Origin: a virus
Lineage: Duplodnaviria > Heunggongvirae > Uroviricota > Caudoviricetes
Strand: one strand, 5' to 3'
Virus record (IMG/VR): IMGVR_UViG_3300045988_029198
Span: 1-58,013 of that record
Length of the DNA: 58,013 nt
A program made the translations under genes and the position numbers. Position 1 is the first letter of the stretch, and each line of letters starts with the position of its first letter. Positions 5,896 through 8,868 of this stretch are shown one piece after another. The notes below the pieces were generated by a model that made no database searches, was not told where the DNA came from, and was given only the letters and a program-made list of their open reading frames with translations.

Positions 5896-8868
5896 ATGGC
5901 TAACTGTAACGATTATATCAGTGCTGATGATTTGAAAACAGGCAAACAAGCGATTTTACATATTGAACACGTTGCGAAAAGTCGTGATGCTAACGGTAAT
6001 CATGCGTTGGATGTTACCGATACGATCCGTGATCAATCAGTTACCAACAAGACGCTTGATGGTTTAGAAAACCTGTACAATCAGGCTATATCTCAGGTTG
6101 GCTATATCACAATGGATAGCTTCGAAGATGGCGCGACATTAACATTGCCTAACCAGGTGTTGCGATATAAGTCGACAGGAGAATATTACCGATGGGACGG
6201 TGAATTTCCTAAAACCGTTTCTTCTGGTTCAACACCTGAAACTGCTGGTGGCGTTGGTCTTGGCGCGTGGGTTAGTGTTGGTGACGCTTCATTAAGAAGC
6301 CAGCTTTCTGACCCTGATGGCGCAACAAAATATCCAGATTTGCAGATCGCAAGATGGAGAGACACATTCGACCCGCGCGGGTGGAATGCAAAAGGTGATG
6401 GGGTCACCGATGACACCTCAGCGCTTAATGGCGTATTAAACGCCGCACCAGTTGGTCAGAAAATTAATGGCAATGGGAAGACATATAAGGTCACATCCCT
6501 GCCTGACATTAGTAGATTCGTCAATACTCGTTTTGTATATGAACGTATTCCTGGTCAGCCTCTTTTTTATGCTTCTGAAGATTTTATCCAGGGAGAGTTA
6601 TTTAAAATTACAGATACACCGTGGTACAACGCCTGGACGCAGGATAAAACGTTTGTATATGACAATGTCATCTATGCGCCTTTTATGGCTGGAGACCGCC
6701 ATGGTGTAAATAACCTCCATGTTGCATGGGTTCGCTCAGGAGATGACGGGAAGACCTGGACAACGCCGGAATGGCTTACAGATTTACATGAAAACTATCC
6801 CACAGTTAACTATCACTGCATGAGTATGGGGGTTGTCAGAAATCGCCTTTTTGCTGTAATTGAGACGCGGACCGTGCGCGGAAATAAACTGCAGGTTGCA
6901 GAGTTGTGGGATCGCCCAATGAGTCGCAGCCTTCGCGTTTATGGTGGTATAACGAAAGCAGCAAATCAGCAAGTCGCTTATATTCGCATTACTGATCACG
7001 GATTATTTGCTGGTGATTTTGTCAACTTCTCAAACTCTGGTGTTACAGGTGTTACCGGGAATATGACGGTGACTACTGTTATTGATAAAAATACTTTTAC
7101 AGTTACGACGCAAAATACCCAGGATGTGGATCAGAATAACGAGGGTAGATACTGGAGTTTTGGTACATCATTTCACTCGTCACCATGGAGAAAAACCAGT
7201 CTTGGAACTATTCCTTCTTTTGTTGACGGAAGCACTCCTGTTACTGAGATTCACAGTTTTGCGACGATTAGCGATAACAGTTTTGCTGTTGGCTACCATA
7301 ATGGTGATATTGGTCCACGCGAGCTTGGGATACTCTATTTCTCTGATGCTTTCGGTTCTCCTGGTAGCTTTGTTCGCAGACGCATACCTGCAGAATATGA
7401 GGCGAATGCATCTGAGCCATGTGTAAAATATTATGATGGCATTCTGTATCTGACGACCAGGGGGACATTAAGTACTCAACCCGGTAGTTCATTGCACAGA
7501 AGCTCTGATTTAGGTACATCATGGAATTCTCTTCGCTTCCCAAATAATGTTCATCACTCAAACCTTCCTTTTGCCAAAGTTGGCGATGAGCTGATTATTT
7601 TTGGCAGTGAGCGCGCATTTGGTGAGTGGGAAGGAGGAGAACCTGATAACCGTTATGCAGGAAATTATCCAAGAACATTTATGACCAGAGTTAACGTCAA
7701 TGAGTGGAGTCTGGATAATGTAGAGTGGGTTAATGTTACTGATCAGATTTATCAGGGCGGAATAGTTAACTCTGCGGTTGGTGTTGGTTCAGTTTGTATC
7801 AAAGACAACTGGCTGTACTACATTTTCGGTGGGGAAGACTTTCTAAACCCATGGAGCATAGGGGATAACAACAGAAAATATCCTTATGTTCACGATGGTC
7901 ACCCGGCTGATTTGTATTGTTTCAGGGTGAAAATTAAACAGGAAGAATTTGTTTCAAGGGATTTTGTCTACGGAGCCACTCCTAACAGAACGCTTCCTAC
8001 TTTTATGTCGACGTCCGGCGTGAGGACGGTTCCTGTACCCGTTGATTTCACAGATGATGTTTCCGTCCAGTCACTGACTGTCCATGCAGGTACATCAGGA
8101 CAAGTTCGCGCGGAAGTCAAACTGGAGGGCAATTACGCCATTATTGCGAAGAAAGTACCGTCTGATGATGTTACCGCTCAGAGATTAATCGTTAGCGGCG
8201 GTGAAACAACGTCTTCAGCAAATGGCGCAATGATAACGTTGCATGGTTCCGGAAGCAGTACTCCACGTCGCGCGGTATATAACGCACTCGAACATCTTTT
8301 TGAGAACGGAGATGTTAAACCTTATCTTGATAATGTAAATGCTCTTGGTGGGCCTCGCAACCGTTTCACCACTGCATACCTCGGAAGCAGCCCTATTGTT
8401 ACTTCTAACGGAGAGAAGAAAACGGAGCCGGTAGTTTTTGATGATGCTTTCCTGGATGCCTGGGGTGACGTTCACTACATCATGTACCAGTGGTTAGATG
8501 CTATTCAACTGAAAGGCAATGATGCTCGTATTCACTTCGGGGTTATTGCTCAGCAAATTCGTGATGTATTCATTGCACATGGTCTGATGGACGAAAACAG
8601 TACGTATTGTCGTTATGCCGTTCTGTGCTATGACAAGTATCCACGGGTGACCGATATGGTATTTTCGCACAATGAAATCGTTGAACACACTGACGATGAG
8701 GGTAATGTCACTACCACGGAAGAACCTGTATACACCGAGGTGGTTATTCACGAAGAGGGTGAGGAATGGGGTGTTCGGCCTGACGGAATTTTCTTTGCTG
8801 AAGCTGCTTATCAGCGAAGAAAACTGGAAAGAATCGAAGCCAGACTTTCTGCTCTTGAACAGAAGTAA
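5896..8868 (+). CDS. tail fibre/tailspike, endosialidase-like, with C-terminal intramolecular chaperone domain (peptidase S74-type)
   Basis: ATG at codon 10 of track ORF; Asp-box motifs SGDDGKTW and SSDLGTSW; C-terminal GDVHYIMYQWLDAIQLKGNDARIHFGVIAQQIRD chaperone-type region. Confidence 0.8.
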   Translation: MANCNDYISADDLKTGKQAILHIEHVAKSRDANGNHALDVTDTIRDQSVTNKTLDGLENLYNQAISQVGYITMDSFEDGATLTLPNQVLRYKSTGEYYRWDGEFPKTVSSGSTPETAGGVGLGAWVSVGDASLRSQLSDPDGATKYPDLQIARWRDTFDPRGWNAKGDGVTDDTSALNGVLNAAPVGQKINGNGKTYKVTSLPDISRFVNTRFVYERIPGQPLFYASEDFIQGELFKITDTPWYNAWTQDKTFVYDNVIYAPFMAGDRHGVNNLHVAWVRSGDDGKTWTTPEWLTDLHENYPTVNYHCMSMGVVRNRLFAVIETRTVRGNKLQVAELWDRPMSRSLRVYGGITKAANQQVAYIRITDHGLFAGDFVNFSNSGVTGVTGNMTVTTVIDKNTFTVTTQNTQDVDQNNEGRYWSFGTSFHSSPWRKTSLGTIPSFVDGSTPVTEIHSFATISDNSFAVGYHNGDIGPRELGILYFSDAFGSPGSFVRRRIPAEYEANASEPCVKYYDGILYLTTRGTLSTQPGSSLHRSSDLGTSWNSLRFPNNVHHSNLPFAKVGDELIIFGSERAFGEWEGGEPDNRYAGNYPRTFMTRVNVNEWSLDNVEWVNVTDQIYQGGIVNSAVGVGSVCIKDNWLYYIFGGEDFLNPWSIGDNNRKYPYVHDGHPADLYCFRVKIKQEEFVSRDFVYGATPNRTLPTFMSTSGVRTVPVPVDFTDDVSVQSLTVHAGTSGQVRAEVKLEGNYAIIAKKVPSDDVTAQRLIVSGGETTSSANGAMITLHGSGSSTPRRAVYNALEHLFENGDVKPYLDNVNALGGPRNRFTTAYLGSSPIVTSNGEKKTEPVVFDDAFLDAWGDVHYIMYQWLDAIQLKGNDARIHFGVIAQQIRDVFIAHGLMDENSTYCRYAVLCYDKYPRVTDMVFSHNEIVEHTDDEGNVTTTEEPVYTEVVIHEEGEEWGVRPDGIFFAEAAYQRRKLERIEARLSALEQK

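Follow-up and report, generated by a model that had tools for sequence, protein, structure and literature searches.

Within a 58,013-nucleotide (nt) stretch of viral DNA (IMG/VR record IMGVR_UViG_3300045988_029198, positions 1 to 58,013; "the window" hereafter means this whole stretch), we examined the tailspike gene at 5896–8868 on the plus strand, one open reading frame (ORF) with its stop codon at 8866–8868 that encodes a 990-amino-acid (aa) endosialidase precursor. The window, assembled as a circle, is the complete ~58-kb genome of a 9NA-like siphovirus (Sashavirus/Nonanavirus), whose backbone is ~95.6% identical to those of the Escherichia coli phages Bas82, PJ16, PDP46, and BDX09P1 at 80–89% coverage, and 81–93% identical to those of the Salmonella phages Sasha and 9NA. 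The gene order runs from DNA polymerase, methylase, spanins, endolysin, and holin (minus strand) through the tailspike gene (plus) and an ssb fragment (minus) to the tail-tip, minor tail protein, and tape measure genes (minus), just as it does in Bas82, and the succession of lysis genes, tailspike gene, and tail-tip gene is common to Bas82 and 9NA. Called mechanically, the ORF on this strand spans 5869–8868 and opens at TTG 5869; this start was dropped, because ATG 5896 has a Shine-Dalgarno sequence (GGAG, 5884–5887) 8 nt upstream and gives an N-terminus (MANCNDY...) that is the same as the one annotated for the tailspike of Escherichia phage KarinMuster (Bas82). Since both lines of evidence agree on ATG 5896, the gene boundaries proposed in a first-pass annotation, made from the sequence alone, are exact to the base, while its term "tail fibre" should be corrected to tailspike.

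The six endosialidase Pfam domains that we expected were all found above their curated thresholds in the 990-aa protein, and four of the matches cover the full-length profile. The Tail_spike_N adaptor domain (aa 64–130, nt 6085–6285) is followed by End_N_terminal (PF12218; aa 165–231, nt 6388–6588; 127.3 bits) and by the six-bladed beta-propeller catalytic domain End_beta_propel (PF12217; aa 232–681, nt 6589–7938; E = 5.4e-233), which scored 772.9 bits against a cut-off of 24 over profile positions 1–367 and into which End_beta_barrel is inserted (PF12195; aa 343–425, nt 6922–7170; 157.6 bits). The stalk, End_tail_spike (PF12219; aa 682–836, nt 7939–8403; 257.6 bits), forms a triple beta-helix, directly after which Peptidase_S74 (PF13884) was detected at aa 840–897 with 36.2 bits against a cut-off of 22. 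Searches of the PDB agreed with this layout: the structures 3gvl and 1v0e of endoNF, the endosialidase of phage K1F, matched aa 160–836 at E = 0, the phi92 endosialidase 4hiz matched at 1.3e-267, and 3gw6, an endoNF stalk-plus-chaperone construct, matched aa 717–990 at E = 1.5e-146. The C-terminal intramolecular chaperone domain was delimited at aa 837–990 (nt 8404–8865) from the Peptidase_S74 and 3gw6 matches together with a Ser/Lys dyad.

Residues that matter for catalysis are conserved as well. A deep-mutational-scanning study of K1F names H350, R549, E581, R596, and R647 as the catalytic residues of endoNF (PMC12632334). By alignment, all five are present here, as H269, R475, E507, R522, and R573, and six more mutation-intolerant positions (Q330, D331, H527, S528, K585, and N699 in endoNF numbering) are also conserved. 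Two Asp-boxes, SGDDGKTW (aa 281–288, nt 6736–6759) and SSDLGTSW (aa 536–543, nt 7501–7524), align with the Asp-boxes of endoNF; two or more occurrences of S-x-D-x-G-x-x-W arose at a frequency of 5e-5 among 20,000 residue shuffles of the protein. For autocleaving S74-type domains, a Ser-Lys dyad has been described (PMC3742443). The predicted dyad here consists of Ser837 (nt 8404–8406) and, five residues downstream, Lys842 (nt 8419–8421), equivalent to S911 and K916 of endoNF; in the K1F record the mature gp17* ends at residue 910 and the chaperone domain starts at Ser911, a boundary that aligns with Thr836|Ser837, so that Thr836 is predicted to be the last residue of the mature protein. The endoNF stalk residues R837, S848, and Q853, which we take, unconfirmed and with no weight placed on them, to be sialic-acid binders, are kept for R and S, and Q is replaced by Met both here and in CUS-3. 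Phage endosialidases (endo-N-acetylneuraminidases) correspond to CAZy family GH58. At the level of sequence, then, the protein carries each defining feature that we examined for phage endosialidases and for the S74 chaperone family. The first-pass annotation had recognized two canonical Asp-boxes, a chaperone-type C-terminal region, and the architecture of a polysialic-acid-degrading tailspike, and all of these were borne out by the domain matches, the endoNF structures, the shuffling statistics, and the conserved catalytic residues.

Having established the protein family, we turn to the composition of the gene, which was mapped by comparison with five reference genes (codon-based sliding window and mismatch maps) and proved to be a mosaic with sharp borders (all segments lie on the plus strand). 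Segment A (aa 1–102, nt 5896–6200) is the virion-anchoring N-terminus of a 9NA-like/Sashavirus tailspike; it is identical to Bas82 in amino acids, it belongs to a tract of identity with that phage that begins upstream of the gene (700 of 701 nt over 5500–6200), and the gene is 75.8% identical to the 9NA tailspike gene over its nt 1–405. A 5′ exchange zone of 85 nt follows (segment X, 6201–6285, the 3′ part of Tail_spike_N), which is 68–79% identical in nucleotides to any reference and thus without a close nucleotide parent among the five genes; at the protein level it resembles gp13 of PDB entry 9occ_G. Segment B (6286–6513) holds the linker and the first part of the endosialidase N-terminal extension; it agrees with phage IME207 at all 228 nt, differs from the Ackermannviridae phage YX22 at a single position (227/228), and is 76% identical to K1F. 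The catalytic core and most of the stalk make up segment C (6573–8351, aa 226–818), where 1770 of 1779 nt (99.5%) match siaK1 of phage CUS-3, corresponding to 99.2% aa identity with SiaK1, as against ~66% nt identity with the K1F, IME207, and YX22 genes; the CUS-3 siaK1 record cites a direct assay of endo-alpha-sialidase activity. Finally, segment D (8352–8868), the last 17 stalk residues plus the chaperone, is 98.1% identical in nucleotides to IME207, 96.7% to K1F, and 65% to CUS-3, and the chaperone domain alone shows 98% aa identity to IME207, 96% to endoNF, and 56% to the chaperone of CUS-3 itself. The crossover from CUS-3-type to K1F/IME207-type sequence lies at 8345–8356, in the conserved ALGGP codons, about 17 codons before the cleavage site.

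Beyond the stop codon, the 3′ flank (8869–9045) is identical to IME207 at all 177 nt, through the intergenic hairpin and into ssb. Read from these nucleotide matches, the gene is a recombinant of four sources, namely a Sashavirus anchor, an IME207-type linker, a CUS-3-prophage-type core, and a K1F/IME207-type stalk end with its chaperone and 3′ flank. A single complete parent was not found in two collections: none of the cultured-phage records covers at least 80% of the gene, and neither does any of the 186 matching genomes among complete E. coli genomes. Segment C itself was present in those 186 of 5426 complete E. coli genomes, in chromosomal prophages and never on plasmids, and among cultured phages together with complete E. 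coli genomes it occurred only in temperate P22-like/Uetakevirus phages and chromosomal prophages.

The region between the tailspike gene and the tail-tip gene also bears traces of exchange. A GC-rich hairpin with T-runs on both strands (8876–8895), resembling a bidirectional terminator, separates the tailspike gene from the ssb remnant; its stem is the same in the sibling contigs L014 (8981–9000) and L015, and its 4-nt loop reads TTCG here and, inverted, CGAA in both siblings. This hairpin was the only noteworthy signal in the surroundings, as a promoter scan of 5400–9500 returned 7 sites against 7.6 expected by chance and was thus uninformative. The ssb ORF (8905–9315, minus strand) encodes 136 aa, is truncated at its 5′ end so that the first 31 aa of the IME207 SSB (OB fold) are missing, and its alignment to the Pfam SSB profile begins only at position 28. 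Up to 9045, its 3′ end shows 100% identity to IME207, and its homology to the full-length genes of IME207 and of the 47-kb contig L013 stops abruptly at ~9310, beside a terminator-like hairpin (9313–9327) downstream of the tail-tip gene, which ends at 9337. At this locus 9NA and PJ16 have no ssb, their tailspike gene abutting the tail-tip gene, and in L014 and L015 the fragment has a 66-nt internal deletion. The fragment looks less like a functional gene than like a decaying scar that recombination left behind when a cassette was imported earlier. The source of that scar may have been a phage with the tailspike-then-ssb arrangement, in which case the fragment would now serve as 3′ homology for further exchange; in this genome the 3′ crossover lies at ~9045–9085.

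Because the window is a metagenomic assembly that was closed through a 30-bp tandem repeat, and because the same collections are rich in CUS-3-type prophage contigs, the mosaic might be suspected to have arisen when reads from such prophages were misjoined with those of a siphovirus carrying a K1F/IME207-type endosialidase. The recurrence of the gene speaks strongly against this. The whole window is 100% identical to the ENA contig ERZ27304637:k141_156094, which is present in a different circular permutation, and an independent Logan assembly of SRR2566064 (9,604 bp) is 100% identical and spans every mosaic junction. Clustering at 90% protein identity gathered 11 distinct 990-aa sequences with intact ORFs on contigs of 56–58 kb from JGI/IMG, ENA, and Logan, including two proteins from metagenome-assembled genomes at NCBI (UWI24576.1 and UVX60486.1) that had been automatically named "catalytic beta propeller domain of endosialidase"; in all, the exact protein or variants 96–100% identical to it were found on at least 10 contigs of 56–58 kb from independent assemblies. 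Two other samples yielded the siblings L014 and L015, which retain every junction and match the region at 99.3% identity, and an IMG/VR sibling (L056) is 98% identical. Moreover, the B-C-D module recurs, at 99.3% nt identity over 6286–8900, in 983-aa proteins (P0002–P0011, for example on contig BRDB01017406.1) encoded by about ten contigs of 45–48 kb, which have an IME207-like N-terminus and IME207-like neighbors (full-length ssb, erf, and exonuclease) and share the same B/C and C/D junctions, as well as in P0012, an 837-aa protein whose N-terminus is short. Given these independent assemblies and recurring junctions, an assembly chimera was rejected, and an artefactual origin of the mosaic is hardly credible. 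IMG metagenome 3300045988 (loci L021, L028, L031, L056, and others) yielded both a contig with a Sashavirus-type 990-aa endosialidase (L056) and many CUS-3-type prophage contigs, and thus the proposed recombination partners co-occur in at least one sample set.

Taken together, we consider it very probable, from homology, that the gene product is a functional endosialidase tailspike, matured by its chaperone, and that it makes a 9NA-like siphovirus specific for the K1 polysialic-acid capsule. Mechanistically, the precursor would trimerize with the aid of its C-terminal chaperone domain (aa 837–990), and after folding of the triple-beta-helix stalk, a cut made by the Ser837/Lys842 dyad between Thr836 and Ser837 would release the chaperone. 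The mature trimer would then dock on the tail tip through its Sashavirus-specific N-terminus (aa 1 to ~130), and its beta-propeller would cleave alpha-2,8-polysialic acid, so that the phage could reach the cell surface by tunneling across the K1 capsule. Since the Bas82 tailspike at this locus is the sole receptor-binding protein, the gene is likely the host-range determinant of a Bas82 sibling in which an O-antigen-specific body has been replaced by an endosialidase. The K1-type capsulated Enterobacteriaceae host named in the first-pass annotation is supported by the near-identity of the core to the siaK1 gene that CUS-3 carries as a prophage in E. coli K1 strain RS218, and by the E. coli-phage backbone. 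Part of the reasoning offered there fared less well: an ssb is indeed present at 8905–9315 (minus strand), but as a hitch-hiking fragment shared with phage IME207 it is weak as an argument and says nothing on the host. The E. coli-like rdgC was correctly recognized (40894–41808, plus strand); it is full-length (Pfam RdgC, 2e-115) and 71.6% identical in nucleotides to the chromosomal E. coli rdgC.

As for how the gene was assembled, the Sashavirus most likely gained the linker-core-chaperone module (B, C, and D) as one cassette by recombination at the Tail_spike_N adaptor and the ssb fragment, because the same module also sits on IME207-like phages of ~47 kb, where, at 99.3% nt identity, it adjoins a full-length ssb-erf-exo operon. 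A longer chain of events can be proposed, in which a lytic-type 9NA-like siphovirus switched from O-antigen to K1 through an IME207-like cassette with homology arms in Tail_spike_N and the truncated ssb, the core of the cassette having been copied earlier from a CUS-3-type prophage in a K1 host. We hold this complete chain to be possible, though slightly more doubtful than probable. If true, it would document gene flow from a prophage to a virulent phage and on to a second phage genus, and a natural hybrid in which a CUS-3-type stalk is folded by a K1F-type chaperone.

Several points weigh against these interpretations and bear on the remaining alternatives. Both the activity and the K1 specificity of the 990-aa protein, like its autoproteolysis, would follow from very close homology to endoNF and CUS-3 SiaK1. 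The chaperone is heterologous to the CUS-3-type stalk, given that the chaperone of CUS-3 is only 56% identical to it, and correct folding of the hybrid is suggested solely by the recurrence of the combination in two phage lineages. In principle, this heterologous chaperone and the nine nucleotides at which the core differs from CUS-3 could have consequences: the protein might bind polysialic acid yet have no catalytic activity and serve as an adhesin, or might be re-targeted and cleave another capsule. We regard that as very unlikely, because the five catalytic and six further intolerant residues are conserved, the core is almost identical to an enzyme recorded as assayed, and the ORF is intact in 11 variants. 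Rather than E. coli K1, the host could be another bearer of polysialic acid, such as other Enterobacterales or K92 E. coli: IME207 carries an endosialidase although its record gives a Klebsiella host and its name includes Salmonella, the chromosome of Atlantibacter hermannii encodes a 984-aa relative (76% identical), and relatives of the Sashavirus infect Salmonella and Klebsiella. However, the closest backbones (95–96%) are those of E. coli phages, the near-identical core was found here only in E. coli chromosomes (among the complete genomes and never on plasmids), and rdgC resembles that of E. coli, which leaves a different host with a slim probability. With respect to the recombination history, in which the order and direction of the events are tentative, the 3′ flank at 8869–9045 matches IME207 and not the 47-kb contig L013, and none of the sampled sequences is a full parent of 6201–6285.

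Two further observations concern tailspikes outside this gene. The A. hermannii relative (P0014) has a Tail_spike_N adaptor and lies on a 4.56-Mb chromosome, which may point to a prophage beyond E. coli and perhaps also to a polysialic-acid capsule there. The anchor of segment A is joined to other bodies in sibling phages, namely a 701-aa tailspike with a BNR_2 sialidase-like propeller in BDX09P1 (P0066; 58,371-bp record) and an 847-aa tailspike with a Peptidase_S74 chaperone in Sashavirus 536P12 (P0115); since siblings carry different bodies on the same anchor, the tailspike locus appears to be a hot spot for the exchange of receptor-binding modules.

Elsewhere in the genome, a perfect 30-bp tandem repeat (ACACCAGCGGCAGCACCTGTAGCAGCGCCT) occurs at both ends of the window (1–111 and 57935–58013), inside a Gp2.5-like ssDNA-binding/annealing gene; because this repeat was used to circularize the assembly, its copy number here is provisional, and Bas82 has ~10 copies (L001, 237–526). 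The 618-aa protein at 333–2189 (plus strand) is annotated as DNA polymerase in Bas82 and has no Pfam match at E ≤ 1e-3; the swapping of DNA polymerases in such phages has been discussed (PMC11348598 and its preprint). Other replication-type genes include a primase/helicase (50418–52772), an SNF2-type helicase (53581–55242), and a DUF2800/PD-(D/E)XK nuclease (56174–57319). Three paralogous T5orf172/MUG113 (GIY-YIG-like) plus CapR/DUF723 genes (16106–17017, 20130–21101, and 28514–29437, plus strand) sit within the minus-strand tail and head operons in opposite orientation and are probably selfish genes of the homing-endonuclease type, and a similar gene is present in the IME207-like contig L013 (944–2023). 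A 21-bp tandem repeat at 44295–44391 (4.6 copies, 98% matches) produces a 7-residue protein repeat in a 270-aa ORF (43704–44516) with no Pfam match, and an Asp-box-like SRDYGATW at 38448–38471 (minus strand; aa 120–127 of the putative large terminase, ORF 37065–38828) is compatible with chance across the whole proteome. A Pfam scan of 30 of the larger ORFs, which was not exhaustive, found no integrase.

Endosialidase tailspikes are already known from T7-like (K1F), SP6-like, P22-like (CUS-3), phi92-like, Ackermannviridae (YX22), Kagunavirus (K1G and JSSK01), and Shuimuvirus (IME207) phages. The cultured-phage collection that we searched held no 9NA-like phage with this gene, and a literature search linking Sashavirus with endosialidase found no papers in the searchable literature. 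Our understanding of how endosialidases work is unchanged by this gene. Phages and enzymes that remove the K1 capsule from neonatal-meningitis, urinary-tract, and avian-pathogenic E. coli depend critically on endosialidase tailspikes, and the gene, though not surprising, is useful for K1 phage therapy and for tailspike engineering. In particular, the sharp mosaic offers natural and evidently viable junctions for such engineering, in the Tail_spike_N adaptor and in the ALGGP motif, which precedes the cleavage site by 17 residues, and shows a K1F-type chaperone and a CUS-3-type stalk combined in nature.

Among the known systems, the tailspike resembles endoNF (gp17 of Escherichia phage K1F; 1v0e, 3gvl, and 3gw6) in the order of its domains, starting with the Tail_spike_N adaptor, and in its mature catalytic part (69% aa identity); both have two Asp-boxes, the same catalytic residues, and the cleavage-site context IVT|SNGExK, and their chaperones are 96% identical. 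K1F, however, is a T7-like podovirus whose 1064-aa protein has a longer and unlike N-terminal anchor, and the core here is of CUS-3 lineage (66% nt identity to K1F), with a 7-residue insertion (FVDGSTP, aa 440–446) that is absent from endoNF. CUS-3 SiaK1 is near-identical in the propeller, the barrel, and most of the stalk (aa 226–818), but has a P22-type head-binding N-terminus (PF09008 in protein cluster P0013) and a chaperone of its own, and CUS-3 is a temperate P22-like podovirus, whereas the present phage is a siphovirus. IME207 (Shuimuvirus) is likewise a siphovirus with a tailspike gene convergent on ssb, and it is 98–100% identical in segments B and D and in the 3′ flank; in IME207 and its 983-aa relatives, by contrast, the anchor is only 46% identical over aa 1–102, ssb is full-length in an ssb-erf-exo operon, and the genome is ~47 kb, while the core of IME207 itself is K1F-type. 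With Bas82 and 9NA, the present phage has in common the locus, its orientation, and a single receptor-binding tailspike of a 9NA-like siphovirus, the first 102 aa being those of Bas82; the tailspike of Bas82, however, has an unrelated body (647 aa) that confers dependence on the O16 O-antigen, that of 9NA targets Salmonella O-antigen, and neither has a sialidase or chaperone domain. The Kagunavirus siphoviruses K1G, K1H, and JSSK01 carry endosialidase tailspikes with the same Pfam domains and a demonstrated dependence on K1, but their genomes are ~44.5 kb with 50% GC and an HK97-type cos terminase, and they belong to another genus than the backbone of the window; identity with the published K1 siphovirus JSSK01, a 44.5-kb Kagunavirus, was thus ruled out. 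Overall, what is new here is a 9NA-like backbone for an endosialidase and a precisely delimited four-source mosaic, within a protein family that is itself ordinary and well understood.

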